Assembly (NCBI GenBank): GCA_003344405.1
Contig: NOWV01000118.1
Coordinates: 124,001-188,000 of the forward strand
DNA: 64,000 nucleotides
Direction: 5' to 3'
Origin: Trichoplax sp. H2
Lineage: Eukaryota
The notes under the pieces were generated by a model. The model had not been told where the DNA came from. It made no database searches and saw only the letters and a program-made list of their open reading frames with translations. Shown here one piece after another: positions 14,669-47,699 of this stretch. Within the stretch, counting starts at the first letter, position 1. Each line of letters opens with the position of its first letter. Both the position numbers and the translations under genes were made by a program.

Positions 14669-15565
14669 ATGTCAATCATGGAAGAAGGTACATTACCTCA
14701 GTCGGAAATGCACTTGATAACGATCGGCAATGTCCTTTATAAAATTAAACTATTCGCCAAGCGAGATAAGAACTCTACCGTTGAGGAGGAAAAGAAATTT
14801 TGGGCTAGAAGAGATGTTCGCCATGACATGAAACGAATGATAACTTTTATCTTACAGCATGAATCACGCTTATTCCCCATACGCAGCGATACATTTATCG
14901 CCTATCCTTATAAGAAATTATGGCATAAAGGCCAAGATTTATCATACTTTCGCGATAATAATCGATTGAATGTGAGCAAATTCGAATTTGTCTTATTTCT
15001 ACAGAATATTTCAAATGACCCAGTCCACCAGGAGCAGCTGCAATCTATTGCTAAAAATAAAAATTTACGCAGTAATAACACCAGATCAAAAAGAAAGCAT
15101 CTAAGCCTTGAAAGTAACTATGTTGGGCATAACAGTTCAAGTGGTAGCACAGCAAAAAAATCAAAGAAAGCCGATTGTGACCGTGGTAAGAAAGATCAAC
15201 TCCCAGGTGCACTAGAAGCCGATAATGTACAGGTGGAGAATGCTACAATAAGCAATGAAAAAATATGTGATACAGCCATTCGGCAATCCGCAGATGATAG
15301 CTGCAGCAGCAGCAGCACGGTTGGCGATGAGGATAACAATACTGGTAGTAACAGAAACATCGTTACTACAGCTTTGGCTTGTGATGAGGCTACAGAAGAG
15401 AATAAAGTATCAAACGACGATAATAGTAGTTTAATAGATGCTGACATTGGCCGAATAGAACAGTTGGCCAATCGAAACTATAAATTACATAAAGATCGCG
15501 GTAATACTAACGAGAGCACCGGTTCATTCTTGATGGCGTTTTTTAATCGATTTACTTATTCGTAA
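14669..15565 (+). CDS. MAJIN: MAJIN-like membrane-anchored junction protein (meiotic telomere complex), 298 aa, single coding exon
   Basis: The N-terminal ~110 aa align by eye with the mammalian MAJIN core: LPQSEMHLITIGNVLYKIKL vs YPFPETRFLHAGPNVYKFKI; LFPIRSDTFIAYPYKKLW vs LQPFATEHFIVFPYKSKW; FEFVLFLQ vs YPFVFTLYV. A basic patch RSKRKH (vs MRKRKH), a disordered middle and a hydrophobic C-terminus GSFLMAFFNRF follow. An in-frame stop lies upstream of the ATG. A probable 5'UTR intron spans 14405-14598. Confidence 0.72.
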   Translation: MSIMEEGTLPQSEMHLITIGNVLYKIKLFAKRDKNSTVEEEKKFWARRDVRHDMKRMITFILQHESRLFPIRSDTFIAYPYKKLWHKGQDLSYFRDNNRLNVSKFEFVLFLQNISNDPVHQEQLQSIAKNKNLRSNNTRSKRKHLSLESNYVGHNSSSGSTAKKSKKADCDRGKKDQLPGALEADNVQVENATISNEKICDTAIRQSADDSCSSSSTVGDEDNNTGSNRNIVTTALACDEATEENKVSNDDNSSLIDADIGRIEQLANRNYKLHKDRGNTNESTGSFLMAFFNRFTYS

Positions 15566-17410: not shown

Positions 17411-18412
17411 TATCTTCGCCTCATAAAAGTCGTATTCTTAAAGTGGTAGTCACTCTTTGGTTTTTGTCTATTCTCGTCTATTCTTAACTCATTTTGCAGT
17501 TATTTGTTACTGTGTCGTGAAAGTTATACTGCAAGTTATGTTGCTAATCACTTCCAAACTATCTGGCACTACTCCATTAGAAGAAGCCATTTCTATAGCG
17601 CAGGCGTAGCACCGTATGTACAGTACAGGAGTCCATATACTGTACACTGTGCTGTCATTTCATACTGTACTGTACAGGGTGTAGAAATTCGATCTAGATT
17701 TAAAAAAAACAGATAAAATGATCAAAAGATATACAGTTTTATGGGTTTTATTCGAAAATAAATCATAAAAATATTCACTGACTTATCTAGAAAGAAATTC
17801 TACACCTTGTACTGTACTGTACTGTATGTACAGTACTGTGTAGTGTCTACAGTGTGTACTGCCATGGACTGTAGGTGTACTATGCTAATATTGTGTTAAG
17901 GGAGTGTCTAGCATTCCGTCCATATTTCCAGCAGCAATCTTTGACCTCTGGCACCGTAGTAGTCTGTATCGGATAGTACTGCAGNNNNNNNNNNNNNNNN
18001 NNNNTATCTTCGCCTCATAAAAGTCGTATTCTTAAAGTGGTAGTCACTCTTTGGTTTTTGTCTATTCTCGTCTATTCTTAACTCATTTTGCAGTTATTTG
18101 TTACTGTGGCGTGAAAGTTATACTGCAAGTTATGTCGCTAATCACTTCCAAACTATCTGGCACTACTCCATTAGAAGAAGCCATTTCTACAGCGCAGGCG
18201 TAGTACCATCTGTACAGTACAGGAGTCCATATACTGTACACTGTGCTGTCATTTCATACTGTACTGTGTAGTGTCTACAGTGTGTACTGCCATGGACTGT
18301 AGGTGTACTATGCTAATATTGTGTTAAGGGAGTGTCTAGCATTCCGTCCATATTTCCAGCAGCAATCTTTGACCTCTGGCACCGTAGTAGTCTGTATCGG
18401 ATAGTACTGCAG
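17411..18412. repeat. Near-identical direct duplication either side of a 20-N gap (17985-18004), probably two uncollapsed alleles
   Basis: Copy 1 (17411-17984) and copy 2 (18005-18412) differ by a handful of SNPs and one 166-bp indel. Both abut the gap. Confidence 0.9.
17675..17809. mobile_element. 135-bp Tc1/mariner-type MITE with TA target-site duplication
   Basis: TA|CAGGGTGTAGAAATTCGATCTAGAT ... ATCTAGAAAGAAATTCTACACCTTG|TA: 25-bp terminal inverted repeats with 4 mismatches and an AT-rich non-coding interior. The element is absent from the second copy of the duplication. Confidence 0.8.
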
Positions 18413-27777: not shown

Positions 27778-30700
27778 CTATTGGCTTTGCTGATTAGCGA
27801 TATTTTGGGTATTATAAGCTGAATTATGACTAGTGGTAAAACCATTTCCGTTCTGATCGTAAAGAATATTTTGACTATTATGATTAGGTTCATCATATCT
27901 TATTTCTTGATTAACTTGATTAGGGTTTGTCGCATAGGCGTTACCATGCTTACCATAATCTAATTGCTGATTTACTTGATTAGGATCGATAGCATTGGTA
28001 TTGCCATGTTGATCATAAGTTACCTGCTGAGTATCTTGATTGCCACCTAATTCAGATACGTTACTGTTTCCATCATGCATTATTTGTTGCTGATAATCTT
28101 GACTATTATTATCGACAACATATGGATTGCCATGCTCATCGTAACCTGCAGGTTCAATAGCTTGATTAGGATTGATAGCATAAGCATTGCCGTGCTCATC
28201 ATAAGTTATGTGTTGATTTTCTTCATTCGATGGTTGTCCAAATCCATTACCTTGTGCGTCAGATGTTGCATAAGCATTACCATGCTCATCGTAGATAACC
28301 TGACTATCATCTTGATGAGCATCTGCAGTAAAAGCATTTCCGTGTTCATCATGAGTGATCTGTTGATCTTCTTGATGAGGATCTATGGTCGTATAAGCAT
28401 TTCCATGCTCGTCATAGGTAATCTGCTGACTGTCTTGGTAGGGATTTACGGTATAAGCGTTCCCATGCTCGTCATAAGTGATCTGCTGACCATCTTGGTA
28501 GGGATTTGCCGCCGTATAAGCGTTTCCATGCTCATCATAAGTAATTTGCTGACCGTTGTGACCTGGATCTGTACTAAAAGCGTTTCCATGCTCGTCATAA
28601 GTAATCTGCTGACCATTTTGTTGGGGATCTACGGCATAAGCGTTTCCATGCTCATCATAAGTAATCTGCTGATCATTTTGATGGGGATTTACGGCATAAG
28701 CGTTTCCATGCTCATCATAAGTAATCTGCTGATCATTTTGATGGGGATCTACGGCATAAGCGTTTCCATGCTCATCATAAGTAACCTGTTGACCATTTTG
28801 ATGGGGATCTACGGCATAAGCGTTTCCATGTTCATCGTAAGTAATTTGCTGATCATTTTGATGGGGATCTACGGCATAAGCGTTTCCATGCTCATCATAA
28901 GTAACCTGTTGACCATTTTGATGAGGATCTACGGTATAAGCGTTTCCATGCTCGTCGTAATGAATCTGTTGAGCCTCTTGATGGGGATCTACGGTATAAG
29001 CGTTCCCATGCTCGTCATAAGTGATCTGTTGGCCATCTTGATTCGTATCTACGGTATAGGCGTTTCCATGCTCGTCGTAAGCGATCTGCTGACCATCTTG
29101 ATGAGGATCGACGGCATAAGCATTTCCATGCTCGTCGTAATTGATCTGCTGGCCATCTTGATAGGGATCTACGTTATATGCATTTCCATGTTCATCGTAA
29201 GCAACTTGTTCACTCTGAGGATCTACTACGTATGCGTTATTGTGCTCGTCATAGGCAACATGTTGAGTATCTTGGTTCGACTCTGCGGCGTATGGATTGC
29301 CATGTTCATCATAAACGACATCGTGGCCATCTCCCTCTTGATTTATTGCATACGCATTGCCGTGTTCATCAGAAACAAGTCCTCTGTTTGATGGATCAGA
29401 ATTTTCAATACCACCATGTTCATCATTTGCTATTAATTGATCGTCTTGATCATGGTCTACTAAGTAAGCGTTGCCATGCTCATCATGAGCGACCATCTGT
29501 GGCTGCTGATCATGTTCATCATCAGCAATTTCCTCATTTGTCCTGTTGTCATTGGCATCATCGGGCTCATCATGGATTATTTCTTGCTGCTCATCATCAC
29601 GAATACGATCTTGTTCAGAGATGACAACATTACTTTCTGCTTCGTTATCGATCTGATCGTCATTATTTATGTCTTGCTCTTGATCTGCATGTTGGCTACC
29701 CTCAGTTTCTTGTCTGTTCTCGTCATCATCGTGAATGTTGGTAGGCTCATCCTCTGTCTTTTGATCCTCTTCATGTTCAGATTCATGACCTGAAAGTTGC
29801 CCTTCTTCGATCACTTTCTCTCCGTCGATGCCATGGTCTTCTTCAGTATTTATTTTCTCTTGCTCTTCATCCAAGTGTTTGCTATCATCGATTTCTTGTT
29901 CACCTTTGTCATCTTTATCATTTTCAGGTTCATCTCCTGTCTTTTGATCGATTTCACCTTCGGATTCATGACCTGAAACTTGACCTTCTTCCGTTGCTTT
30001 TTCGCCATCGGCATTTTGATCATCTTTAATTTCTTCTTCCTCTTCATTAGATTCATCTTCTGCCTTTTGGTCAGCCTCGCCTTCCGATGCATAATCTATG
30101 GGTTGCCCTTCTTCGATCGTTGCCTTACCATTGTCATCATGGTTAATTTCTTCTTGATCTTGATGAGATTCATCTCCTATCTTTTGATCGGCTTCGCTTT
30201 CAGATTCATGACCTGAACGTTGGCCTTCTTCAGTTGCTTTCTCACCATCAATGTTGTGATCATCATTATTTGTTTCTTCTTGCTCTTGATTGGATTCATC
30301 TTCTGCCTTTTGATCAGCCTCGCCTTCAGATTCATGATCTATGGGTTGCCCTTCTTCCGTAGCTGTATTACCATCGTCATCAGGATTAGTTTCTTCTTGA
30401 TGTTGATGAGATTCATCTTCTGTCTTTTGATCAGCTTCGCCTTCAGATTCATGACCTGGTAGTTGGCCTTCCTCGGTTGCTTTCGCACCATCAACGTTGT
30501 GCTCGTCATTATTTGTTTCTTCTTGCTCTTGACTAGGTTCATCTTCAGTTTTTCTATTGACTTCACCTTCAGACTCATGATCTGCAAGTTGTCCTTCTTC
30601 ACCATGATTAATTTCTTCTTGATGTTGATGAGATTCATCTTCTGTCTTTTGATCAGCTTCGCCTTCAGATTCATGACCTGAAAGTTGGCCTTCCTCGGTT

Positions 30701-33700
30701 ACTTTCTCACTATCAACGTTGTGCTCATCATTATTTGTTTTTTCTTGCTCTTGACTAGGTTCATCTTCAGCTTTTCCGTTGGTTTCATCTTCAGACTCAT
30801 GATCTGCAAGTTGTCCTTCTTCAACTGCTGTCTTATCATCGTCATTATTCATTTCTTCTTGATGTTGATGAGATTCATCTTCTGCCTTTTGATCAGCTTC
30901 GTCTTCAGATTCATAACCTGAAAGTTGGCCTTCCTCGGTTACTTTCTCACTATCAACGCCGTGATCATCATTATTTGCTTCCTCCTGCTCTTGACTAGTT
31001 TCATCTTCAGCTTTTCTATTGGCTTCGCCTTCAGATTCATGATCTGCAAGTTGTCCTTCTTCAACTACTGTCTTACCATCTTCATCATTATTCATTTCTT
31101 CTTGATGTTGATGAGATTCATCTTCTGTCTTTTGATCAGCTTCGCCTTCAGATTCATGACCTGGAAGTTGGCCTTCCTCGGTTACTTTCGTACCATCAAC
31201 GTTGTGCTCATCATTATTTGTTTCTTCTTGGTCTTGACTAGGTTCATCTTCAGCTTTTCCGTTGGCTTCGCCTTCAGATTCATGATCTGCAAGTTGTCCT
31301 TCTTCAACTACTGTCTTACCATCTTCATCATGATTCATTTCTTCTTCATGTTGATGAGATTCATCTTCTGCCTTTTGATCGGCTTCGACTTCAGATTTAT
31401 GACCTGAAAGTTGGCCTTCCTCGGTTACTTTCTCACTATCAACGTTGTGATCATCATTATTTGTTTCTTCTTGCTCTTGACTAGGTTCATCTTCAGCTTT
31501 TCCGTTGGCTTCGCTTTTTAACTCATGATCTGCAAGTTGTCCTTCTTCAACTGCTGTCTTACCATCTTCATCATGATTCATTTCTTCTTCATGTTGATGA
31601 GATTCATCTTCTGTCTTTTGATCAGCCTCGACTTCAGATTCATGACCTGAAAGTTGGCCTTCCTCGGTTACTTTCTCACTATCAACGTTGTGATCATCAT
31701 TATTTGTTTCTTCTTGCTCTTGACTAGGTTCATCTTCAGCTTTTCCGTTGGCTTCGCCTTCAGACTCACGATCTGCAAGTTGTCCTTCTTCAACTGCTGT
31801 CTTACCATCTTCATCATTATTCATTTCTTCTTGATGTTGATGGGATTCATCTTCTGTCTTTTGATCGGCCTCGACTTCAGATTCATGACCTGAAAGTTGG
31901 CCTTCCTCGGTTACTTTCTCACTATCAACGTTGTGATCATCATTATTTGTTTTTTCTTGGTCTTGACTAGGTTCGTCTTCAGTTTTTCTATTGGCTTCGC
32001 CTTCAGATTCATGATCTGCAAGTTGTCCTTCTTCAACTGCTGTCTTACCATCGTCATTATTTATTTCTTCTTGATGTTGATGGGATTCATCTTCTGTCTT
32101 TTGATCGGCTTCGACTTCAAATTCATGACCTGAAAGTTGGCTTTCCTCGATTGCTTTCTCAGCATCGTGGTTTATTTCCTCTTGCTCTTGATTATATTCA
32201 TCTGCCTTTTGATCAGCTTCACCTACAGATTCATGATCTATGGGTTGCCCTTCGTCGACTGCTGCCTTACCATCGTCATCATTATTAATTTCTTCTTGAC
32301 CTTGACGAGATTCATCGTCGGTCTGTTGATCGGCTTGGCCTTTAGATTCATGACCTGAAAGTTGGCCATCCTTACCATCAACGTTGTTTGTTTCCCCATG
32401 GTCTTGATTAGATTCTTCCGTCTTTTGATCCATTTCACCTTCAGATTCATGACCTACAAGTTGTTCTTCATCGGCTGCTTTATCACTATCAATGTTATGA
32501 CCATCACTGTTTATTTCTTCTTGCTGTTCGTCTAATTGTTGATTGCCATGCGTTTCTGCTTTAAAGTCAGCATTTTCTTGATCGTCTTTAGATTTGGCCT
32601 TTCGCTCAATTTCATGTTCAGATTCATGACCTTGGGCTATTTTCTCGCCATCAACATTATGATCGGCGTTAGCTAATTCTTCTTGCCCTTCCTCAACTGC
32701 ATTCTCTTGATCGACCTCACCTTCAGCTTCGTGACTTGAAACTTGCCCTTCTTCAATTGCTTTCTCTCTAGCGATCTCACCTTCAGATTCATGACTTAGA
32801 ACTTGCCCTTCCTCAGCTGCTTTCTCTCCATCGACCACGCTTTTAGATTCATGATCTAAAAGTTGCCCTTCCTCAACTGCTTTTTCCCGATCAAGCTCAC
32901 CTTCAGATTTATGAACTGAAAGCTGCTCTTCTTTGAGCGTTCTCTCATCTTCGATGTTATGACCGTCATTATTCATCTCTTCTTGCTCTTGATTTAATTC
33001 GTTTTCCGTCTTTTGATCTATTTCTCCTTCAGATTGCCCTTTCTCATAACTGGCGTTTTGATCATTATGAGATTCATCTTCTGCCTTTCGATCGACTTCG
33101 CCTGCAGATTCATGACCTGATAGTTGCTCTTTCTCAACTTCTTTCTCATCATTGATATTTTGATCATCATGAGATTCATCTTCTGCTTTTCCTTTGACTT
33201 CGCCTACAGATTCATCACTTGCCAGTTCTCCTTTCTCAATCATTTTCTCACCATCGTGGTTATGATCACCATGAGATCCATCATCTGCTTTTCCATTGAC
33301 TTCGTCTACAGATTCATAACTCGCCAGTTCTCTTCCCTTAATTACTTTCTCATCATCAACGTTATGATCATTATGAGATTCATTTCGATCGACTTCGCTT
33401 TCAGTTTCATGACCTGAAAGTGGCTCCTTCTCAGCTCCTTTCTCGTCATCGACGTTTTGATCATTATGAGATTCATTTTCTGCATTTCGATCGACTTCGC
33501 CTTTAGATTCATGACCTGAAAGTTGCTCTTTCTCGCTGTCGACATTAGTATCGCCGTTATTTATTTCTTCTTGCTCTTTCTCTAAATGCTGGCTGTCATC
33601 GGTTTCTTGTTTGACATTATCATTATTTTGATCGTTTATGGATTCATCTTGTGTCTCTCGATCCACTTCGTCATTGGATCCTTGACCTATAACTTGGTTT

Positions 33701-36700
33701 TCTTCCATTGCTTTATCATGGTCGATGTTATGATTATCATGATTTATTTCTCCTTGTTTGGCATTATCATGATCATTTACAGGTTCATCTTCCACCTTCT
33801 GATCGATTTTGCCTTCAGATTCATGAATTGAAGGTTGCCTTTCTTCGATTGCCTGCTCATCACTCATGCTATGGTTATCGTTATTTGTTTCTTGCTCTTG
33901 ATCTAAATGTGGATTGCTAACGGTTTCTTGCTTCACTTCGCTATTATTTGGATCATTTACGGTTTCATCTTCCGGTTTTCGATCCATTTCAACTTCATGA
34001 CTTAGAAGTTCTCCTTCTTCAGCTGCTGTCTCACTTTCCATGGCATGGTCGTCATTATTTATTCCTTGTTCTTGATCTAGTTGTTGGTTACTATCACTTT
34101 CTTGTTTAACTTGGGCATTACCTTGATCGTTTACGGGCATATCTTCTACCTTTGATTCTTCTTCAGCTTCATGACCTAAATTTTGCTCTTGCTCCATTTC
34201 TTTCTCATTTTTGGATTCATGATCGTCATGACTAACTTCCTGCTTTTGAGATAAATGTTGGCTATCATCGGTTTCTTGTTTAACTTCGTCGTGATCTTGG
34301 TCTCTGGCAGGTTCATCATCGGCTTTTCGACCGAAGTCGTCCTTCGATGCATAGTCTGAATTTTGCACCTCTTCGATTGCTTTCTCATCATCGACGTTGT
34401 GGTTCTTGTGATCCACTTCTTCTGGCTCTTGATCATAATGTTGGCTTGGATCGATTTCTTGCTTAACTTCATTATTATCTTGATCATTTGCAGGCACATC
34501 TTGTATCTTTCCATCCAATTTATCGTCAGATTCATGAACTGAAAGTTGTTTTTCTTCCATTGCTTCCTCTCTATCGATATTATGATCGTTATGGTTCATT
34601 TCTTCTTGCCCTTGATCTAAAAGGTGGCTGCCATCGGGCTTAACTTCGTCATGCTGATCTTTTGCGGCTTCATCTACCATCGTTGGATCTCCGTTGCTTT
34701 CTGGTTCATGGCTTAACGATTGCTCTTCAGTTGCCTTGCTATTAATTTGCTCTTGTTCTTGGTCTAAGGACTGGCTATCATCAGTTTCCTGGTTCGCTTC
34801 ATCGTTATGTTGATCCTTTACAGATTCTTCCATTTTTCGATCGGTTTTGGCTTCCGATTCATGACCTGAAGTTTGTTCTTGTTCATTATTGATGTTATGA
34901 TTGTTATAATTTATTTCTTCTGGTTCTCTATGCGAATATTGACTATCATCAATTTTTTGCTTGACTTCGTTATTACCCTGATCATTGACAGATTCTTTCA
35001 TCTTTACATCAACTTCGCCGTCCGATTCATGAGCTAAAGGATGTTCTTGCTCGAAAGCTTTGTCAGTACTAGCTGTATGATCATGACCGTCTGTTTCTCC
35101 TTGTTGTAAACGTTGGCTGCCATCGATCTCTTGTCCAACTTGGTCATTATTTTGATTATTTACAGGTTCATTTTCTATCGTTTGATCGACTTGACTTTGC
35201 AATTCATGGCCTACAAGTTGCTCTTGTTCCTTTGTTGTCTCATTATCAGCAATGTGATGATCATGATTGATTTTCTCTTGTTGTTGATTTAAACGTTGGT
35301 TATTGTCATTTTCTTTTTCAACTTTATCATAATCCTCTGTAGACCTATCGTCTACCTTTCGATCCACTTCACTTTCTGATTCATGATCAGATAGTTGCCT
35401 TTCTTCTACTGCTTTCTGATTATTGATAGATTGACTTTCTGGTCCTTTACTGTCTTGATTATTTACAGATTCGCCTTCTGCCTTTCCGTTGATTTTATTT
35501 CTCAATTCATCGGAAATTTGCTCTTGTTCAATTGCTGCCTTATTATTGCTACTATGATCTGTCTTCTCGATTTCTTCTTGAGTATTCTGGCTATCATTCA
35601 TTTCTTGCTTACTATGATCGTCTGCAGGTTTGCCTTCTAGATGATGATCCGAAAGCTCTCCTTGTTCACTCCTTTTCTTATCACTGGTAGCGTGATCATG
35701 ATTTCCTTCTTCACGTTCTTGTTCTAAATGTTGGTCGTCATTCACTTGTGGCTTGATTCCATCATCTTGATCATTTACATGTTGATCTTGCACCTTTCCA
35801 TTGGTTTCTCTATCCACTTCGTGACCAGAAGATTGGTGCTTTGCGATTCCATTTTCTTCATGGACGTCAAGTTTATCGCTCTTCATTTTTTCTTGTTCTT
35901 GATCTCCATGTTGGCTGTCGTTAAGTCCTTGATTAGTTTCATCATTTTGATCTTTATTGATGTTAAAATGGTCATTACTTCTCCCTTCTGGCTCTCGATC
36001 ACCTCGATCATTTATGGATTCATCTTCCGTTATTTGATCATGTCTAACTTTGCTAATTTCCTGAAATTTCTCTTCGTTCTCAGATTGCTGATTGGTATTT
36101 AAGTTATTCCTTTCTTCAAGGAGATTTTGTGTTGTTTGATGATTATTGTTATTCTCGACATCTTGAAGAACGGAACTTTTATCTGTTTCTACCTGCAACT
36201 CTTTCGATGGTTCGTTATTTTGACCATCTTTTTCAGTATTTTGTATTGGAATATCTCCTCTGGTTAGAGTCCCATCATTTAGACTATTATTATTATCTTG
36301 GCTCGTTAAATTTTTGTCGGTTGTCGTTACGTTTCCATCTTCATCTTTTTCTACAGTTCCGCTATCATAATACTGATTATGAAGAACTTGTTCAGTTTCC
36401 CTGCCTTGACTAAGAGTTACCTGGTTATCATTGGATTGATAACCATTGGCATCCTTCTTGTCATCTTCCCTTACCAGAGTTGAATCACCATCTTTAGATT
36501 GATCAATATCTTGATCAGTGGCTTCTTGGATATGTTTTTCAGCTGAAATTGGACTTGCAGCCTTTTGATTTGTAATCATGGTTGCGTCCTGGCTAGTATT
36601 CTCGTTTTGCAAGTTTGGGTGGCTCTCTTCTCCGGTACTAATTTCTCCTTGTTTACCCTCTTCAATGGCTTCATTATTAATAGTTGGATTGGCTTCGCTC

Positions 36701-39700
36701 TCTCTAGTGATGGCTCCATTTTCATTTATTTTATGCTCTTGCGAATTGAAGTGGCTACTGTCTCTAGTATCCATTTTGGTTTCGTTATCATCGATAGTAG
36801 TTTGATCCCTGTCTCTACTTTCGTATTGATCTATTCTATCTCTTGGTGTATTGAAATGGGTATTTTCTGCAGCATTAATTTCGGCTTCGTTACTATCGAC
36901 AGTGGTCTCGTCGACCATGATTTCATTAACATTACTATCCTTTGCTATGATCGATTCTACTTGCTCATCATTCGCTTGACCTGCCGTTTGATCTTGATTT
37001 ATTTCGTTATTTTTTGCTTGTATTTCCTCCTTCTCCATTGTTGATGGCTTACTATTAAGATTATCATCTTGATCTTTGCTCAATACTGAGTCTTTTTCTA
37101 TGTTCTTATTTTCTGCAACTATAGGCTGGTGATATCGACCTATTTCCTCGTCCCCAGGCAATGAGTGATCACTATTTAGTTTTTCTTCTTGATCATTTAC
37201 TTCCTGGTTGTTATTGTCATTAGTTGACTTGATGTCATCTTTTAGAGATTCGCTATTTTGATAGTGATCGATCTTGTCCTCACTTTCATTCTTCAAATTG
37301 TTTTTAATTCGATCTTGGTCAGGAACTTCTGTATTCAATTCCGATCGGTTCTCGATGGTACTGTTACTTTCTTCAATTTCATCCCTTCTATGTTGAGTTG
37401 AAATCAGTTTATCATCTGTCGAATCAATGGTGCTATCATCGATGCTCTCGTTTGCCTTAGCTATAATTTCGTTTTCTGCTACAAGTCTATTCGAATGATC
37501 ATCGGTAATATTGTTCTGATGGCTGTCTTGGGAAGCCAAATTATTTTTGTTGTCATCTGAAAATTTGTTCTCAATTTCTCCCTTCGCTGTAGATTCTTGA
37601 TCGGCCGGATGATTTTTGAATATTTCTTTCTTATCCTCATATGAACTATTTTCAGTGGTATTCTTATTAGTAATCATTCCTACATGAGCTTTGGGTAATA
37701 TTGAATCAGTAGGGATATTTATATTATCTCTAACACTCATTCTATCTGATGCTTTATCCTGGATAGGACCATCATGGCTTGCACTTTCTGTGCTTTGTTG
37801 CTCATTATCTTGATCTTGGATACTCTTTGTATCGTTAGGATGATCGTTACTTTGGCTAACGACAGGGGAATGCTCTTCCGTTCTCTGTGATAGATCTACT
37901 GCCATAGTTTGATCTTGTTGATCATCTGTGGATTGATTTTCTATTTTCTGCCCTACTTCAGCTACATTCACATCATGATTATTTTCTGTTTGGTCACTTT
38001 TTCCTTGCAATTGAAGTTGATCTTCTGAAACCTGATGAGATGACTGAAGTAAATTATTAATTGCTGTATTATCTTCTACCTTGGCTTGATGATCGTTTGT
38101 TTGGCTTTGATGGTCTTCTAAGATCTCATCGACTTTCGGAGAAGGTTCAGTAACATTTGACTGGCTGGAGAAGCTAGCGTTAGTAATGCTTTCAGTTTGA
38201 TCTCTATCTACAGCGTTGACTAATTCGTTGTCATGTAACTGCAGTAATTGCTCTTGATCTTCTTCAAGTTCGTTATGGCTGCCTTTCTCATCTGATATTT
38301 GAGAATTGACATTTTCAGAAGGCGTTAATGATGATCTCTGGTTATATCTAGCATCGATTTCTGCTTTTTCAGCTAATTCTGAAGTTTCAGCAGTTGCTTT
38401 TACGACATTTTCATTTGGTGGCGATACTACAGTATCCTCTTGAATGTTTTGGATATCCTCAGCGTTTGGTTCGGAAAGTTCTATATTGGAGTTATCTTTT
38501 TGGATGGTTTCGATTAGATGAGATTGATCATCATCACTATGATGCTCTATTTCTTTACCGGGAGATGATGAAGCAACGTTTGCTGACTCTTCCTCCTTTT
38601 TATGATTTATACTAGCACTCGGTAACACAGAATTATGATCCACTACATCAGAAGATCTATTTTCGGTTACAGCATTCTCCGATTCTTGATCGATTAATTG
38701 ATTGTGGAGATGACTTCCCTTAGCAGAACTATCAGATGCATCACCAATTTTAGTGTCCGTTTTAGGAGTGCTGACATAATGTACTTGTAAGTCTTCTTCA
38801 TTTTGATTGTTATTTACAGGCTTGAGGTCTTCATTGCCAGTTTCTGTGACAGGGACAACTGCTACGATGTTTTCCTTCGAATTTTGTTTCTTATTTGGAT
38901 CATGTTTCTGATCTTTCTTCTTATACTTTTCTGATTTTTTTCCTTCTTTATTAGTAGGCTTGCTACGTTCTGAGTTCGATCGAGTATCATCTGGTGGCGA
39001 ATTGCTGTTTGTTTGGGACTTTATTTGGTTCGTTGCCACTACATCATCGGGTTCTGATGATTTGTTGTCAGTAGCTTGTTCTACCCTTCTATCATTATCA
39101 TTATAACTTTTCTTATTTTCTACTGCTTCCTTTTTATCAGTAGCATTATTATCTTCTTTATCCGAGATTGTATCCGGTTGTAAGCTATCAGGTTTAAATG
39201 TTGCGGTATTCGCATCAGCCTTGTCTTCTATTCCTTGTGATGCTATCATCTCTGATGTAACCGCAGTTACATCTTCTATAATTTCTTCATTAATGCTTTG
39301 CTGATCGACAGACTGATGGCTTGATGCAGAAATTTTCTCATCAATTTCATCACTAGGCAAATTTGTTGCTATTTCTATACTAGCGGCTTCATTGTTAGAA
39401 ATTACGTCCTGTTGTAAGTTATCAGATTTTACTAATGTATTATTTGCATCAGTTTCATCATCTACAACCTGCGATACAACAGATGAAATATCATCTAAAA
39501 TTTCTTCTTGAATACTTTGCTGACCAACAGCCCCATAACTTGTTGGAACTTTCTCATCAATTTCTTGCTCACCAGGCAAATTTGGTGTTGTTTCTATATT
39601 ATTAACATCGATATTGGAGATTGCCTCTTGCTGTAAGTTATAAGATTTTACGGATACGTTATTTGCATCGCTTTCATTTTCTTGAGCTTGCGATGCAATA

Positions 39701-42700
39701 ATCTGTTTTGGTGGGACAGCTGATATGACTTCTAAAGTTTCCTCTTGAGCACTTTGCTGATCAGCAGCTTGATTACTCGATGTAGAAATCCTCTCATCTA
39801 CTTCTTGATCATTTGGCAAATTTGGTGTTGTTTCTATACTAATAGTATCATTATTAAATATTATATCCTCTTGTGAGTTACCGGATTTTACTGATGTATT
39901 ATTTGCTTTGAGTCCATCTTCTAGAACCTGCGATACAACCATTTGTTCCGGTGGAATAACTGATAAGGCTTCTATAATTTCTTCTCTACTACTTTGTTGA
40001 TCGGGACTCTGATGACTTGATGATATAGAAATTTTGTCATGTATCTCTTGATCACTAGCCAAATTTTCTTGAGCTATCTTGATGGGGTTTTGATCCATTT
40101 CTTGATCAATAATATCTGCATCGAACGCCTTAATCATACTATCTTCTTGGTTATGTCCATTAGTATTATCGACTTCAGGACTTTGCTCTTCAATTTCATC
40201 TTCATATGAGTTTTCACTGTCTGATCTACTGCCAACTGAAAAGGATTCCATAGAAGGTTCAAGAATGTCTTCAACGCTATCTTGACTTCGTGCTGTAATT
40301 AAATTTGTGGAATCGTCAGTGATTAAAGTAGTACCTGCTGTTTGGCTCTCTGCTTCATCAGCTTCATATTTTGTTCCTGCAAGAGCTGCTTTATAGCTTT
40401 CGATCAATTGGGAATCGTTCACATTTTGTTCCGTAGTAATGCTGTTTCCCAATTCAGAACCATTTTTAGCATTCTGGTCCATTGTATTTGCGAATATTTC
40501 CTTATTATCTTGAGCGTCGATATCGCTATCACTCATATTTGCTGATTTTTGTAATGGAAGAAGATCCATTAATGATTCACTAGCAACAGCAACGACTGGA
40601 TGGTTTTGTGATTCTAGAGTAACCTCAACTCCTGGGATGATTGGCTCTTGAGATGACTCGATGCCATGTTCAGTTTTTGTCAATTCTACTTCATTAACAA
40701 GTTCTACAGTTGATGGATAGTCATCTTCATTTTGATCGAGCTTTTGGTAGTCTAAGGTAATCTCTTCGTCTTCATCTAACACTTTACTGGCATTTGGCTG
40801 ACTTAACTGATCGTCATTTTGGGGTAACTCCGCCGAATTAGTAAGCTCTATGTTTGATGGGCCATTATTAATGCCTTGGTCGTGTGATAAAGTTATCACA
40901 TTTTCGTTTTCACTTATCGCTGTAGTTGTATCGGCATGACTTAACTGATCTTTGTTCAATTCTCGATCTATCTGCATATTGATAATATTCATATCTTGTT
41001 GGGTGGAGGCAACGGAAGCTTCACTGATTGCTATTTCATTTTCATCGTATGATGCTTCGGCACCGTTAAGTACATTTTGATTTATATCCTTATTCCTGTG
41101 AGTCTCACCTGAATTGCTATTAACATTATCTGAATTACTAAATACAGTTAGTTCTGTTGACTTTAAGTCATCATTATTGATACTAGATTGAGTAATGGCA
41201 TTATTTACAACGTGATGATAATGTTCTATTATTGCTGATTTCTTAATTTCAAGGACATCAATGAAAGCTTTCATCATTATTGAATTAGCTTGCCTATTTG
41301 CAAATTCATAAATTAAAGGTGATAATTTAGACCTTACTGTGGGTAAGTCAGTACTAGTATTTGTAGGTAACGGATTATTCTTGCTTTCTGCCTGATCGTA
41401 ATCATTATTGGTTTTCATTACATCAATAATTGCTCTCATAATAACTAGATTTGCTTGTCTATTAGCAAAGTTATCAATGATGTTAGAAACGCTTTGCGGC
41501 ATTATATTGCTTTCGTTATTCTGAATATCTGATGGCGGTGGAGGGTTCTTTTCTTCTGCTAAATCACTATCACACTGCACGGCAGTATCTGTAGTGATTG
41601 GCTTATGTTGATTAGCAACTTCATTTTTAACGCTACGATGATTACGTAGAGTTTCGTTATGACTACTGTAATATTCATCTCTTGCTGCTGATGATCGTCT
41701 AGATGCTTCATCCATACTAGAATCGGAATAACAACTTGATAACTGCTTTCCTCTGCCTTTGAGTCTTCGCCGACTATACTTGGATCGCTTCGATTTATCT
41801 GTTTTTGGTGGCGATGGAATAAAGGAGTGATTAGAACTATTATCAAGTAGCCTTGATGCTCGATCATCGCTAACATCATCAGATACAATACTATTATCGA
41901 CGCTTTTGGTCATCGGTACGCCTTCTTTCTGAACTTGTTCATTTCCTGATGTAGTATGCAGAGTTCGGCGATGACGTAAATTAGCTGACTTTGGACGATT
42001 CATTGATGAAGGTGGAACTGGTTGGATAGGACGGTCTTCTAAACTTGACAAGGATGAGAGACTCTTATCACTACGTGCTGAATTTGGCCTCCATCTTGAA
42101 TTATTGGATGAGAAATTAACAGTCTTGTATGCATCTTGATCGTTAGATTGGCTTTGCTGTACTTGCGCTAATAACTGATTCCAGTCTTGCTCTTTAGTTA
42201 ATTGACCGTTATAACTTAGCGATGGTGGTGGTATTTCAGGACCGATTAAATTAGCAAGATGTTGTAGTTTGTCGCTTTCCTTACTAATATCAAACCTTGT
42301 GTCTGTTGATAGCTCGGTTCTTAGTCCCGAGTTAGAATATAAGCTGTGGCTATTGACTGTCCATGGTCGCTCTAGTGGAATTGCGTATGGCGATAATTGC
42401 TCACGCTCAAGTAATGATCGAGTTCCCTTATCACGTTTATCGTCATACTATAAGAGTAATATAGAATAATTATTATAAAAATTAAATTTTCCAGGTAATA
42501 TAACGAATTCATGTTCTTGTTAGAAGAGCCTACGCTTTTGTGTAATGATAAATTATCCATTCTATACACATTACAGCATCAAGCCTAACCATTTTGATAC
42601 ATATCAGAAAGGGTTGAGTTGTTAGGCAAAGAGGTTAATAAAAAAAGTACTCCTATTGAACTATCTCAATTAGATGTTAAAAGATCAAGTACATTTGACA

Positions 42701-45456
42701 TCAACGAAGTCCAAATATTTCGATGCAAATTGTGATCGATCGGAAGTTAAGGTGAAGGATAAATTTGCAACATGTTGTGTTGTTATAAGAGCAAGCTACT
42801 GAAGTATTTCTTGGTATTCCATGCAGATAATTTTTATTAATTTTCTTGGCATAAAATAAAATAAGTTATTGCCACACCAGTATTACTAGAGTATGTAGAT
42901 GCTATGTAATGACTATATGGACATTTAAATTACGTAAGTTATCTTTGTTATTCTTACCTTATTATGTTTTCGAGACAACGGCGCTGTTTTGGCTATAATT
43001 GCCGTAATAATGAGACATTTTCACGTTAGAGTGTTATTTTATTTCGTAAACAGCATTAACCTTTCAGATTGCTAGCATGTTAGATAGAATACAAACCTCG
43101 AGCAATATCATCCGATGTTCTATAACCTTTTCGTGACATTTCTTGAGATGTTCTGTTGTAAGGTGTTGTAGGTAAGACTAAAAAAATGATTTTCATTTTT
43201 TTAACTGATTTAAATAATTAAATTTAATTTGTAATTCACTTGTAAGCAAGGATAATATGAAAGACAGACAGAAATGACCAGTTTAATTAATTATTACCTG
43301 AACCGTTATAAAATTGAATAGTGAAGTTGGTAGGATTGAATGGTTCTTCACCCACAGCAATAAAAATATTTCCCTCGTTGAATAGATCGATAACAGACGT
43401 AATCTATAAATGCGATAATTGACATTATCAATAATACTGGATTGACAGAAATGATATAAATTTAGCAGTCTAGTTTCTATGTGATTATATTACTGTATAA
43501 ATAGGTAGACATGCTACGGTAAGAAAAAGCTAATAATTATCAAATATTAATTAAATGGAAAAAATTTGCAGGAAATGACTTAGAGTTTCATCCGTTGATG
43601 ATCAAACACTGTTAAATTTCCATTACATCACTTTGTTGGATACGCATTAGCTGATCTTTGTATGATAAATATGAAGACAGGTAACTTCCTACCGGAGATT
43701 TGAAACTACGTCCAGTACTAATTTAAGTAAATTAGCGCTGGCCAAAATCATACTCATCCTATCGCCATATTACTTATACAATTGAATGCTTACTAGTAGC
43801 TCATTAGTATACCGTCTAGGAATACTTTTCGTTTATGCTGATTAAGTATTCCAATATGAAACGGCGATGAGCTTTAAAAAGTATCGGCGATAGTTCTAAC
43901 GATTGTCTACGTGATTTTATTCAAAACAAATTAGAAAGTAATTGTAACGATTAAGGCAAATTTTTATAGTAAAATTTAGAAAAGGATAATAGTCATAAAT
44001 GATTCTTTAAATATAAAAAATGGAAAAGTTATTAATACTTGCTATACTGATTATGATCTATTTACTTGTTCACCTTGAATACATATACACTTAATAAAAT
44101 ATACTATTGATACTATTTGAACGTTGTTTTCTATTTTTTTAAAGAATATATGGAATACTGTACAGTATGAACTTCTGATTGTTATTTTTCGTTATCATGA
44201 ATGTACCTTCTAAACACTAAATCGTTCTACAATATGGGGCATACGCATACGTTAATATTATATATTGTATAGAAGCAAGGCGTCAATAATTTTAATTTAC
44301 GATAGAATATTGGAAAAATTTTAAGCATCAAATCTACACTATTATATCTTAAAATTTAACTTCTAGCAAAACTATGTTGTAAACCAATTACAGTTCCAAA
44401 ATAGATTTAACAAATTGACTGTAACCTTCATCAGTTGATGAGTAATCGCTATTCTATCAAATTGGAAATTGGTTGATACTTAAAATTAAGTTACTGATTG
44501 GAAGTGGATTGCTAAAAATTAATCAATTTGTAATTATATCAATGACTACCCTAAGAATGAGCTCTACGCGACATGTAAATCGTCGCTTTTTAATTTTTAA
44601 AAATCAAATTATGGTCATTATTAGTATGGAACTCGCTGTCAATGATATAAAAGTGGGTGTAATTGAATTGGCAAGATACGTGTATTTTATTTACCTTTTT
44701 CCCATTTGGTGTAAACAATTTATCGATAGGGCGAAAGAATGTTTGACGATCATGGCGTAATTCAAAATTGGAATTAAGTTCATAAAGTATCCGATGAAAG
44801 TTGTTGCTTGTACGATGATTAAGTAGTAAATTGATAAATTCTTGTGGCGATGGACCGTGACGAACAATTTTAACAATTTTAGCTTTTTTAGCAAATATTG
44901 TTTTAGAATTAGGATCTTTCGATTGGGGTGGACTAGGTCCAGAATTGTTGGATGGCTGTTGTAACCCAGCTGATGTTAGACTACTGGTCTGATCTAAATC
45001 AACAACACGTTGATTAAGATCGATCATATTACCACTAGCGAATGGATCTGGCGTTAAGAATGATGTAGAACGATTTCGATCATTAACCACATCCAAATTA
45101 TTATTGCTGATACGTTGATATTGGCTTTTACGACGAGCTGATTGGGCTGGTCGAACACCAGCACCTAATTCGGCTAATTCACGATCGAATGAGCGCATAT
45201 GATCAGTCGATATAACAGCAGAACCATTAGCATATCTTTTCGTATGATAGCGATGGACACGCCGTCGGTCATTGCCTGAATTGGTGCTATAATCATCGTC
45301 ATAGAGATCACGAAGTATTGGATCCAGTTGAGTTAATTTATCCAGCCTAATATCGCCTTGATCAGAAGGTGTTGAGCGACGAAATGATCCTCGCCGGCTA
45401 CTTTTATCATCGTCATAAGCTGATAAAGATAATTCGAAACTAACTTCACGAGACAT
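27778..45456 (-). CDS. Giant (about 5,217 aa) doublecortin-domain protein with acidic repeat tail, RP1/RP1L1-like architecture
   Basis: Five coding exons with canonical GT-AG sites and consistent phase: 45456-44695, 43403-43298, 43177-43097, 42992-42958, 42447-27778. The DCX domain spans exons 1-2: KAKIVKIVRHG...RTSNNFHRILYELN...PIDKLFTPNGKK|ITSVIDLFNEGNIFIAVGEEPF. The last exon is 14,670 nt of uninterrupted frame and includes the 4757-aa ORF. Confidence 0.8.
27830..29490 (-). repeat. Coding tandem repeat, 60-nt/20-aa unit QQITYDEHGNAYAVDPHQNG, about 25 units
   Basis: Column-aligned 60-nt periodicity at about 28560-29160, degenerating toward both ends. Confidence 0.95.
29700..36000 (-). repeat. 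Coding higher-order repeat: 240-243-nt (80-81 aa) dimer of ~40-aa EEGQLxxHESExE units, grading into degenerate HES-core units
   Basis: EEGQLSGHESEVEADQKTEDESHQH alternates with EEGQLADHESEGEANGKAEDEPSQE at about 29950-32350. Looser copies continue to about 36000. Confidence 0.92.
39200..40060 (-). repeat. Coding degenerate repeat, about 4 copies of a ~70-aa unit (DEKIS...DQQS..EE....SQ..ED...AN...VKS.NLQQ)
   Basis: Visible in the translation of the giant ORF. Confidence 0.75.
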
Positions 45457-45934
45457 TTTCCAATATCGCTACAAGTAGAATTTCAAACTGGATCGATTTC
45501 AGTTTTGGGATGAGACTGTGATTGGCAAATTTCTTCTCTTTTCTACGTATACCGTGGCTCAACTCGTAAATTAATTAATTCTTTCACTTTCTTCAAGCAT
45601 TGAATTCTAGATTAGACATAAAAAAACTTGTTGTTACATAGGTGAAATAAATGCTTGATTAAGTTACAAGTGCAGCGAAAAATGCTTGACAAGTCAAGTT
45701 ATGACAGAATGGTCCACCCTTAAATAATCCATTCTGTCATCACCAATCACTTTCTCCTATGAACAAGTCCAAACTACTATTATCTTCAGGAAATTATAAT
45801 TGCAAGAAAATATCCAAATCAAATTAATAGACATCATGATCATCAATCACCCCAATGAAACGATATCAACAATGTGTGATCTCATGCAATGTAGAATGCT
45901 AGATTAGAGTTGTAAATTAAAATCCTACAAAAGA

Positions 45935-46340
45935 AAGACAACGAAAATCAACTCTTCCGCAATCATGAAGTTCTAAGACAAGTTCACAGTAGCTTATAAT
46001 CAAGGTATCGTACTCCGCTCATAGTGGCATAAAACGATTTCATCAGCAAAAATGACAGTTATTTTGACTATACAGTAGTTGTAATACTCCTTTTTCTACC
46101 TTTAAGAATGGCATAACTATTGAAGGGAAAAGAGTATGATCTAATTTGATTTACTGAAAGGCAACGAAAATCAACTCTTCTATCATCATCCAGTCACTAA
46201 GACTCGTTTAGCTTCTAATCGAAGTATCGTATTCTATCCACCGTGATATGAAACGATTTTATCAGCAGCAAGTAACAATTATTTTGACTATATTTACAAT
46301 ACTTATTTTCCTAACCTTGGGAATGATACCAATATTATAG
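45935..46340. repeat. Degenerate ~220-bp tandem duplication in the 5'UTR intron of the DCX gene
   Basis: CAACGAAAATCAACTCTT occurs at 45939 and 46162. Each is followed by matching GTATCGTA...AAACGATTT..ATCAGCA...TTATTTTGACTATA blocks. Confidence 0.75.
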
Positions 46341-47075
46341 AGAAAGAGTACGATTTAATTAATTTAAAAAAATTTCATTGAACTTTTGAATCTGCGAGTA
46401 AGCAAGTTCTATCTGCAATGGAATAAAGACACTTCATTAACTGTTTACGAGATTCATTAAAACTCTTTTTACGGTGCTTTCTATGCCTTTCGGAATGGCA
46501 TCAATGTAGAGAAGAAAGAATAAAATAACTAATTTCAACATCAAGTCAACAGGACTAATTAAACTTGATTAATCTACTATAGCTATGTTCTACCTGTGAT
46601 GGAATGAAAACATCCTATTACCAGCTAATGATAGTATTTTAAAACTCTTCAAACGGTAGCTGCTTTACTCTTAGTCTTAGCATACATAAATGCTTAGGGA
46701 GAAAGAAGGTAAACTAATCCACTTTCATATCAAGTTATTAAGACTAGTTTATGATCATCATCTAGCCATACTGTATCATCGATTAAAATACAGTAGGCCA
46801 TGATCAGCTAATGAAGGTAATTAAGCCTGTATTAGAAGTTCCTTCTTTACCTCTAAAAGTGCTATAACTAGAAGAAAAATATGGAAAGATAATACTGTGT
46901 CTAAATCGTTTATGACTTTCTATTTCCATGCACCTGCACGACTGTAGCAGTAATTCATATGCTTAAATTGACATTCAGATGAAGAAATGAGATAGAAAAG
47001 GGCAAATAGGCGTCATTACTACTGTTGAATCCTGTTTGTAGGAAGGAAGAAATAATTGAACATGTACTTTCTCAC

Positions 47076-47300
47076 CTTGATCAAGTTTGAATCTGTTAAT
47101 GATTCTTCTCTAGATAGGATAGGAACTAATCGAATTTTCACTCTTCTAACTAGATAATCTCTTGTCTTAATTTTTGTAGAATGTTGAAGAGGAATTGAGT
47201 TATAATTTCATTATAACATAATTCAAATGTTGTTTTCTCTATCTCTCGTTCTATCTCTTTCTTATATTGTCTTGATATCGAATAGAATACGATTTTAACT
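47076..47300 (-). other. Probable non-coding first exon of the DCX gene (upstream boundary approximate)
   Basis: Strong donor AAG|GTGAGA at 47076/47075. The acceptor TTTTTTTATGTCTAATCTAG| at 45607/45606 lies 150 nt upstream of the ATG. Confidence 0.5.
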
Positions 47301-47392
47301 GTGTCCAATTGCTTTCTTCTACTTAACGGAGATATTATACATTAGCAGCACCTCCTCAGGAGTGCATTAGCAACAAGGGGCTTGTTATAAAG

Positions 47393-47406
47393 ATCACCAT
47401 AGCAAC
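47393..47406 (-). promoter_or_regulatory. RFX X-box (GTTGCTATGGTGAT)
   Basis: Matches the X-box consensus GTTGCCATGGCAAC / RYYNYY-N1-3-RRNRAC. A second half-site GTTGCTAA lies at 47367-47374. Both sit in a locally GC-richer patch just upstream of the putative first exon. Confidence 0.6.
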
Positions 47407-47699
47407 CCTACCGTGACCTCTATAGCAGAAGCAAAAAGGAAAAGACACTAGTAACACCCGATTGATTAAGCTAATTTTGGTCAAGGTTAAGCGATGCTAA
47501 TGACAATAAAAGAGTGCAAATAAATAATTAGAGACGATTATGTTATGAATGCAAATAGAATCGACGATGGAAAATGTTCTTCTTGTGATTCGATTATTCA
47601 ATAAGATAAAATAGACAGTAGAGAGGAAGGAGATATTTTGCTGGATAAGATTATCCTCGAACTTCTTTATTTTGCGTTGTCTAAATCAACTATTGTCTC

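Follow-up and report, generated by a model that had tools for sequence, protein, structure and literature searches.

In vertebrate neurons and photoreceptors, RP1L1, MAP2 and Big tau share a design in which a microtubule-binding head is followed by one giant, acidic and disordered exon. RP1L1, as it appears in the accessible portion of PMC12206149, carries two DCX domains and 28 Glu-rich repeats of 16 residues, and the human and mouse proteins show 46.6% homology. According to the available part of PMC1550402, the RP1/RP1L1 group comprises vertebrate members only. In the case of Big tau, the abstract of PMC12896622 describes exon 4a as an acidic, disordered segment of about 250 residues, conserved in length and divergent in sequence.

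Gene structure and expression

The window (the whole stretch of 64,000 nucleotides of DNA analysed here) comes from the placozoan Trichoplax sp. H2, in agreement with the original prediction, made from the sequence, of an early-branching animal. That prediction also held that two separate ORFs and three small exons made up one in-frame gene. Indeed, five coding exons on the minus strand, all of them with GT..AG borders, join in frame to give 5,217 codons plus a stop. The first coding exon (44695..45606) contains the ATG at 45456 and contributes 762 nt (CDS 45456-44695, 254 codons); no earlier start is possible, because an in-frame TAG (45471-45469) precedes this ATG, and the 288-aa ORF that starts there is real. 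It is followed by exon 2 (43298..43403, 106 nt), in which the stretch 43338-43403 finishes the DCX domain (residues 255-276), by exon 3 (43097..43177, 81 nt), whose junctions are found in RNA contigs, by exon 4 (42958..42992, 35 nt) and by the giant last coding exon (27778..42447, 14,670 nt, 4,889 codons plus TAG). The latter, foreseen at 14.67 kb, is a single open frame, with the terminal stop as the only one in 4,890 codons, while the other five frames hold 182-853 stops; in the flanking DNA (1-27000), stops make up about 6.8% of the codons of the three minus-strand frames. The 4757-aa ORF assigned earlier to this exon lies in a real frame, but its length had been counted from TTG 42051, and from the first ATG it amounts to 4,741 aa. 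A non-coding 5' exon on the same strand (at least 47076..47238), spliced to 45606 in RNA contigs, is additional to the five-exon model as it was proposed.

Runs of two kinds were compared, three of them RNA-like (X4, X6 and X9) and one DNA-like (X1). X1 behaves as DNA because its coverage is even across introns and intergenic stretches, and over the intergenic positions 46128-47055 its depth is 82-84, versus 0 to 0.62 in X4, X6 and X9. All four coding junctions, across which the original prediction had suggested looking for RNA, are present in contigs of the RNA runs, and none of the four in X1. Junction 43403/44695 was found in X4 and X6, and junctions 43177/43298 and 42992/43097 each in X4, X6 and X9. 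The key junction, 42447/42958, occurs in contigs of X4 and X6 and, as a 17-letter loose end identical to exon 4, in X9 (three studies), with spliced versus unspliced depths of 124.1 versus 11.5 in X4 and of 84 versus 3.6 in X6. At the 5' end, a UTR joint from 45606 to 47076 that skips 1469 nucleotides, with GT..AG borders on the minus strand, is found in X6 and X9, and a contig of X9 spans 47076-47238; a contig of X4 continues to 45994 without being spliced, which points to an alternative 5' end. The giant exon, whose lack of transcription had been named beforehand as a refutation, is spanned by RNA contigs over 33600-42449, including a single X4 contig that runs from 35717 to 42449. In Trichoplax sp. 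H2, the DCX exons and the giant exon belong to a single gene, which is expressed and whose junctions are documented piecewise by short k-mer assemblies, not by one molecule that spans the gene from its DCX exons as far as the stop.

In GenBank, the head of this gene bears the name "Neuronal migration protein doublecortin" (RDD39895.1, 321 aa). This entry is 100% identical to exon 1 of the window and consists of exons 1-3 plus a read-through past the exon 3 donor into intron 3, where a stop is reached; exon 4 is missing from it. As it reads through into intron 3, RDD39895.1 is a truncated model of the 5,217-residue protein; the original prediction had warned that automated annotation could easily split the gene in two, and public annotation does cut it short. 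The correction, from 321 to 5,217 residues, concerns the public model of a gene in an animal on a key early branch, and automated annotation of placozoans, as well as orthology tables, may overlook very large low-complexity exons.

The DCX head

When the protein encoded by exons 1-3 was scanned with the Pfam DCX profile (PF03607), a check already proposed for the spliced N-terminus, residues 211-276 matched the full profile (1-60 of 60) with an E-value of 1.9e-9 and 37.9 bits (cut-off 22). The first part of the domain (44695..44826, minus strand, residues 211-254) belongs to exon 1, which alone matches profile positions 1-39 with 16.7 bits. In the PDB, the head matches human doublecortin (4atu_I, 1.7e-12) and the C-DC chains 5ip4, 6rf2 and 6fnz (1e-9 to 2e-8), the nearest solved relatives of the domain being doublecortin and DCLK1, and residues 65-278 align collinearly with residues 66-272 of full-length doublecortin. 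Judged from these alignments, residues 191-277 form a true DCX domain, whose closest counterpart is the C-terminal DC domain of doublecortin. AlphaFold2 gave no usable model of the head (pLDDT 33). Neither a signal peptide, whose absence had been anticipated, nor a membrane segment was found in the protein, the best 19-residue Kyte-Doolittle window reaching 1.2.

The original count of one DCX domain holds for clear domains, but should be amended to allow for a possible degenerate N-terminal DC half upstream. This putative vestigial first half (45154..45282, minus strand, residues ~59-101) is near-invariant across placozoan lineages. A profile built from three placozoan sequences gave just three PDB matches at E<=10, all of them to the first half of N-DC domains and none significant (1uf0, 0.28; 6rev_N, 1; 1mjd, 1.1), and residues 55-150, when searched alone against the PDB and Pfam at E<=10, yielded no DCX match. 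The relatives of exon 1 recovered by protein search were placozoan only, about 72% identical and located on short contigs. Doublecortin uses two DC domains, and the single clear one present here speaks against a microtubule-docking reading of the head.

The protein could be regarded as a placozoan orthologue of the vertebrate RP1/RP1L1 proteins that acts in the ciliary axoneme of ciliated epithelia, given that, as far as the consulted part of PMC12206149 describes it, the layout is the same: a DCX head, a last exon of huge size, polymorphic repeats rich in Glu and a weakly conserved sequence. However, doublecortin and DCLK1, and not the RP1 group, are the solved structures that match best (even if RP1 may have no entry in the PDB), a single DCX domain reaches significance, nothing similar was found outside this domain, acidic repeat arrays converge easily, and the group is vertebrate-only in the accessible text of PMC1550402. 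Orthology with RP1/RP1L1, together with a role in the axoneme, is unlikely.

The giant exon

The encoded protein has 5,217 residues, about 585 kDa, a pI of 4.27 and a net charge of about -874, figures that, together with its repeat arrays, bear out the earlier description of the last exon as giant, acidic and repetitive. Its acidic low-complexity spacer (approximately 29551..40740, minus strand) is rich in Ser, Asn, Glu, Asp, Gln and His in the composition by segment. Inside it, Tandem Repeats Finder delimited an array of about 10 units of 243 nt (29929..32372, minus strand), each unit corresponding to 81 aa organised as two halves of ~40 aa, with a protein autocorrelation of 0.78 at lag 81; upstream of this array lie older periodicities of 34 and 58 aa (for example, at 33039-33534). 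Repeat units match one another by 86-92% (Tandem Repeats Finder), and tandem arrays occupy about 5.6 kb of the 14.7-kb exon. The whole protein contains 1,285 Asp plus Glu, 236 His, 2 Cys and 3 Trp. In a charge-hydropathy analysis, all 51 windows fell on the disordered side, a coarse measure by which the folded DCX region is likewise called disordered; the long acidic arm is, on compositional grounds, probably unfolded. Pfam scans of the giant exon, four spacer pieces included, revealed no domain except a partial repeat match in the tail, and a search for relatives of this exon found none, nor any similarity outside the DCX domain.

Among 40 listed of the 129 differences found in the giant exon, 9 were synonymous and 31 non-synonymous, while random changes would give 11.7 +/- 2.9 synonymous ones. 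Indels within the exon were all multiples of three (3/3), and outside it only one of six. Substitutions in the giant exon therefore look neutral while its indels preserve the frame, and what selection seems to preserve is the frame, the length and the composition of the exon, not the identity of its residues, as described for the acidic exon 4a of Big tau. A frame that appears to be kept while residues drift makes this gene a candidate for studying, in an animal of few cell types, how selection acts on the length and charge of disordered regions. Neutral-looking substitutions are also compatible with an arm that is merely tolerated and functionless.

A further explanation goes in that direction: the short DCX head would be the functional product, and the giant exon a tolerated, drifting repeat expansion without a role of its own. 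Besides the neutral-looking substitutions, the youth of the repeats and the lack of any homologue found for the giant exon would fit, and the low-depth unspliced contigs across intron 4 in X4 and X6 could give short products. Nevertheless, a 4,889-codon open frame needs selection, because the other frames are full of stops, the tandem arrays cover only about 5.6 kb of the exon, its indels preserve the frame without exception, and the spliced forms exceed the unspliced ones by about 10- to 20-fold. We consider this explanation improbable.

Two shorter features flank the spacer. Near the head, a twin amphipathic motif around FANRQAN (41233..41496, minus strand, residues ~646-733) consists of two copies of ~20 residues each, 55 residues apart, which belong to the small number of hydrophobic segments in the giant exon and whose helical hydrophobic moments are among the highest of the protein. 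One copy fits a 12-residue RII-binding pattern. The original prediction had spoken of AKAP-like helices, and one might go further and see the main role of the protein in anchoring A-kinase or an RIIa/DPY-30-type partner, so that, in the manner of MAP2, its twin helices would tether a regulatory dimer to microtubules. The twin motifs are real and their moments would suit such a role, but the pattern occurs twice in the protein versus 1.3 +/- 1.1 times in 500 shuffles and is thus not enriched, and AKAP families of Pfam gave no match at E<=10, so that AKAP finds no support as a family label, and a primarily anchoring protein is unlikely.

At the far end, the tail (27888..29499, minus strand) consists of ~23-25 copies of a 20-aa repeat built around YDEHGNAY, with abundant Tyr, Gln, Asn and His. 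The Pfam SBBP profile (PF06739) scores 44.5 bits on the whole piece (cut-off 20.5), a match restricted to profile positions 21-37 of 38 and in which none of the single repeats is significant. AlphaFold2 modelled the tail as one hairpin per 20-residue repeat, at a low mean pLDDT of 41, and no propeller was seen. The RHS/YD repeat (PF05593) was not matched at E<=10 in the 590-residue tail, and the designation as YD-like finds no support as a family label, the partial SBBP-type match being the only one obtained.

The binding of cations is a known property of disordered proteins that are highly acidic. That the Asp/Glu/His-rich repeats, numerous and regular as they are, form a high-capacity buffer of cations (Ca2+, Zn2+) or a mineral-associated matrix on microtubules is nonetheless very improbable, because the absence of a signal peptide excludes a secreted matrix protein, the Pfam scans gave no EF-hand or other binding domain, and there is no tie to a particular cell type.

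Proposed mode of action

The observations can best be integrated, with a probability that we put at about 0.6, by assuming a microtubule-associated protein of the doublecortin family that carries a giant polyanionic projection arm, in a design resembling that of RP1L1, MAP2 or Big tau. In this model, the DCX head is predicted to dock the protein on the microtubule lattice, perhaps assisted by the degenerate N-terminal DC half and by a basic, Ser/Arg-rich linker. The polyanionic stretch of about 4,000 residues, probably unfolded, would extend away from the microtubule and act as an entropic arm or brush, which would keep microtubules at a distance from one another or from further structures and would repel other acidic surfaces. 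Contacts with partners would likely be made both by the 20-residue repeats, rich in Tyr, Gln and Asn, at the distal end and by the twin amphipathic helices near the head.

A more ambitious version of this proposal is conceivable, although we consider it rather unlikely: an independently built, half-megadalton microtubule "brush and tether", in which the doublecortin head is combined with twin helices for kinase or RIIa-type anchoring, a polyanionic arm of about 4,000 residues selected for length and charge but not for sequence, and a Tyr/Gln-rich array of 20-residue hairpins gripping a second structure or other copies of the protein. Placozoans have no nerves. If this version were true, the protein would be, to our knowledge, the largest of the DCX family, and would offer a simple natural system in which to relate the length of a disordered arm to cytoskeletal spacing.

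Comparison with known systems

Doublecortin and DCLK share with the Trichoplax protein a DCX domain above the Pfam cut-off, with C-DC as the best solved match and a possible trace of the first half of N-DC. They differ from it in that only one domain is significant here, the second half of any N-DC being unrecognisable, and in that a short Ser/Pro tail or a kinase takes the place of some 4,900 acidic low-complexity residues. The tail repeats, in turn, have in common with SBBP and YD/RHS repeats the hairpin motif D-x-x-G-N-x-Y, although the SBBP period is of ~40 residues and that of the Trichoplax tail of 20, half of the SBBP profile being matched.

The likeness to RP1L1 and RP1, within what the accessible part of PMC12206149 covers, lies in the DCX head, the very large last exon, the Glu-rich, copy-variable repeats and the poorly conserved body, so that the original comparison with RP1L1 was a fair one with regard to design. 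RP1L1, however, has about 2,400 residues and two DCX domains, against 5,217 residues and one clear domain, and the repeat units are unrelated (16 aa in RP1L1; 81, 34 and 20 aa in Trichoplax). The common layout is not evidence of descent.

MAP2/tau and Big tau, the latter as presented in the abstract of PMC12896622, also combine a microtubule-binding module with a long acidic disordered arm derived from one large exon, and the arm of the Trichoplax protein, like that of Big tau, seems to hold its length and charge as its sequence drifts. MAP2 and tau bind through tau-type repeats, whereas the Trichoplax head is a DCX domain, and the tau-type tubulin-binding repeat of Pfam was absent from every piece scanned. 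By analogy, the likeness is one of function and not of family membership, with an arm more than 10 times longer than Big tau exon 4a (~250 aa in the same abstract). A microtubule-binding head coupled to one giant acidic disordered exon would thus be a design that also occurs outside vertebrate neurons and photoreceptors.

Gene structure and transcription

The gene lies on the minus strand and comprises five coding exons (45456-44695, 43403-43298, 43177-43097, 42992-42958 and 42447-27778), the last of which is referred to here as the giant exon. As laid out in the original prediction, all borders proved to be GT..AG and the joined frame open, the five exons amounting to 15,654 nt and 5,217 residues. 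The ATG at 45456, upstream of the giant exon, starts a 288-codon frame, with an in-frame TAG 13 nt upstream of it. The giant exon is open over 4,889 codons (27778-42447, minus strand): its 4,890 codons include a single stop, the terminal one, while the remaining five frames contain 182-853. In the flanking DNA (1-27000), stops represent 6.8% of codons over the three frames of the minus strand. Chance cannot have produced such a frame. The ORF initially reported as 4757 aa is indeed present, but that count begins at a TTG, and the first ATG yields 4,741 aa. Beyond the terminal stop, an AATAAA occurs near 27507. Plus-strand antisense ORFs of up to 446 codons, such as 28051-29391 (+), overlie the repeats over 28-37 kb and look like by-products of a skewed, repetitive coding strand (AT skew down to -0.44).

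Evidence for transcription came from Logan contigs of four public runs (X1, X4, X6 and X9), belonging to four studies, which were mapped on 33600-47500, the tandem-repeat part (27888-33534) being excluded. These are k-mer contigs rather than single molecules, their joints have sides of 28-106 letters, and they stop short of the 3' end and the final 5.8 kb of the giant exon. Uncovered parts in the RNA runs were not used as evidence, except for an intergenic control (46128-47055). X1 behaves like DNA, showing an even depth of 73-109 across exons, introns and intergenic DNA and no joints. In X4 (RNA on record), X6 and X9, the depth of the intergenic control was 0 to 0.62. All four minus-strand junctions were found in these RNA-like runs, 43403/44695 and 42447/42958 as listed joints in X4 and X6, and 43177/43298 and 42992/43097 in X4, X6 and X9. 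Junction 42447/42958 is also found in X9, as a 17-letter loose end at 42449 that corresponds to exon 4 and occurs nowhere else in the window, and its spliced depth was 124.1 vs 11.5 unspliced in X4 and 84 vs 3.6 in X6. Moreover, a single X4 contig spans 35717-42449 unbroken. The claim that the DCX exons and the giant exon constitute one expressed gene was thus demonstrated, and the junction contigs rule out two separate genes. A non-coding 5' exon (at least 47076-47238, minus strand) is connected by a joint at 45606/47076 in X6 and X9, whereas the X4 contig continues unspliced to 45994, so the gene may have two alternative 5' ends.

Two additional joints were considered separately. One of them, at 42126-42198, comes from a single X9 contig of depth 2.3 that skips 71 bases, with GT..AG borders read on the plus strand, opposite to the gene. 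It may derive from antisense transcription or from an artefact, and was set aside. The other joint, in which 34880 goes back to 33600, was detected in X4, X6 and X9, together with 129-letter loose ends at 34835, and would represent a splice inside the giant exon. This was rejected, because the loose letters are those of 33455-33484, just beyond the mapped stretch, and the contig of these runs that matches 33455-33484 continues with 46 letters equal to the repeat unit 34835-34880. On these grounds, the joint reflects either a variant of the repeat unit or an effect of mapping at the stretch's edge. The proposal that the 46 letters were 33554-33599 was discarded as well (identity of only 15/46). 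They are only 80% like the window's own 33485-33530, a mismatch that could reflect a repeat-unit variant between strains, gene conversion or a difference in the assembly of the window.

Public annotation and relatives

Exon 1 is 100% identical to RDD39895.1, a 321-residue GenBank model named "Neuronal migration protein doublecortin [Trichoplax sp. H2]", which consists of exons 1-3 plus five codons past the exon 3 donor, into the intron, and from which both the giant exon and exon 4 are missing. Residues 1-520 of the giant exon found no match in a collection of 15 billion proteins, either at 30-2,687 aa or at 2,688-8,556 aa, nor was the exact 4,741-aa ATG-started ORF present in it. Since scoring was limited, in both searches, to the candidates with the most words in common, the giant exon seems to lack annotation, though not with certainty. 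When exon 1 was compared with 1.84 billion representatives, one cluster was recovered, a read-through ORF on a short contig with 73% identity. Apart from RDD39895.1, exon 1 has as relatives only read-through ORFs on short contigs, about 72% identical, which we take to come from another placozoan lineage. Metagenomes yielded no relatives, whether scanned with the head alignment or with the tail. The gene is not described in the titles and abstracts listed for Trichoplax doublecortin and placozoan DCX; the Trichoplax papers among them deal mostly with apicortin, which published passages show to be a different gene.

The DCX head

Exon 1 alone gave a partial Pfam DCX match (profile positions 1-39, 16.7 bits). 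In RDD39895.1, where exon 2 is included, the domain is complete (residues 211-276, profile 1-60 of 60, E 1.9e-9), and its 37.9 bits, above the Pfam cut-off of 22 bits, bear out the DCX domain initially proposed. The closest solved structures are human doublecortin (4atu_I, 1.7e-12) and three chains containing only the C-terminal DC domain (C-DC, 1e-9 to 2e-8), while chains of the N-terminal domain (N-DC) of DCLK1 matched weakly (E 0.19-0.9). The alignment to full-length doublecortin is collinear from residue 65 and takes in the first half of the N-DC. By itself, this upstream region had no PDB or Pfam match at E<=10, and a profile of three placozoan sequences retrieved just three chains, all N-DC, with E 0.28-1.1 and a match confined to positions 5-47; the region is, nevertheless, highly conserved among placozoans. 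A vestigial N-DC half, not statistically established, is therefore possible upstream of the DCX domain, and loss of DC domains is described in passages of a work on the superfamily (PMC1550402). An AlphaFold2 model of the head, built on a 3-row alignment, was unusable (mean pLDDT 33).

The protein belongs to the DCX superfamily. We consider it unlikely that it is an RP1/RP1L1 orthologue acting in cilia.

The acidic body, the twin helices and the tail

The whole protein (~585 kDa, pI 4.27) contains 1,285 Asp+Glu vs 411 Lys+Arg, 236 His, 2 Cys and 3 Trp, and, in agreement with the absence of a signal peptide claimed at the outset, neither a signal peptide nor a membrane segment was found in it. 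Net charge is +11 over the first 330 residues; residues ~330-640 are rich in Ser/Arg/Asn, after which an amphipathic motif centred on FANRQAN occurs twice, at residues ~646-733 (the twin helices). Downstream of them, acidity climbs steadily to 23% Glu, through nested periodicities of 58, 34 and 81 residues, among which the 81-residue units (~10 copies, 86-92% matches) are the youngest. The last ~550 residues form 23-25 repeats of 20 residues around YDEHGNAY. Pfam searches with the whole giant exon and with pieces of it retrieved no family outside the tail. The giant exon is, in short, polyanionic and has no recognised domain.

The label "YD-like" for the tail had to be abandoned, as no RHS/YD family was matched at E<=10. 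The SBBP propeller repeat reached 44.5 bits as a sum of partial matches (profile positions 21-37 of 38), with no single repeat significant. An AlphaFold2 model of the tail from a single sequence showed a hairpin per repeat at low confidence, with a mean pLDDT of 41 that rises to 50-63 where the repeats are most regular. The ESM Atlas provided no usable match for the tail or the twin-helix region. The tail may thus be an array of hairpins or, alternatively, a low-complexity "sticker" region rich in Tyr, Gln and Asn.

The label "AKAP-like" could not be sustained either: the helices are real amphipathic features, but no AKAP family was matched and an RII-binding pattern is not enriched (2 occurrences vs 1.3 +/- 1.1 in shuffles). 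With the helices on one side and these searches on the other, a protein that is first and foremost an anchoring one appears improbable.

Evolution of the giant exon

Between the window and the runs, indels in the exon were multiples of three in 3/3 cases, compared with 1/6 outside it. Of 129 single-letter differences, the 40 listed, which are the best supported and mix several strains, comprised 9 synonymous and 31 non-synonymous changes, where changes of these kinds made at random would be expected to include 11.7 +/- 2.9 synonymous ones. Because the indels keep the frame and the synonymous share is near random, the frame is maintained while residue identity is barely constrained. Such drift is what a disordered spacer would be expected to show, and the same combination is reported for Big tau in its acidic exon 4a (PMC12896622). 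Both the weak constraint on residues and the maintained frame bear on the rival view that only the short head is functional and the giant exon a tolerated expansion of repeats, to which we give little credence.

Other features of the window

The window has an assembly gap of 20 N at 17985-18004. A 300-codon ORF at 14663-15565 (+) weakly matches MAJIN (PF15077; E 6e-4, 20.3 bits vs a cut-off of 27). Two neighbouring minus-strand ORFs, at 7198-8025 (with a Pro/Gly/Arg-rich, RGG-like end and no Pfam match) and at 8072-8701 (with a weak ATG14 match, E 7e-4, under the cut-off), may be exons of one gene.

Proposed mode of action and comparison with known systems

The most likely way of working, to which we assign a probability of about 60%, is that of a microtubule-docking head with an acidic projecting arm and partner sites. 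The DCX head would dock onto the microtubule lattice, the acidic unfolded arm would project from it as a spacer or brush, and the twin helices and the tail repeats would act as putative partner-binding sites. That the protein is a cation buffer is scarcely credible, for all its acidic residues.

What stands firm is the correction of the gene model, together with an unusually extreme case of a known design. In this design, the Trichoplax protein resembles RP1L1, for which two DCX domains, 28 repeats of 16 aa rich in Glu and a human-mouse homology of 46.6% are reported (PMC12206149), as well as MAP2 and Big tau. However, it stands apart by its single clear DC domain, by repeat units that are unrelated, by a Tyr-rich tail with a 20-residue unit and by a length more than twice that of RP1L1.
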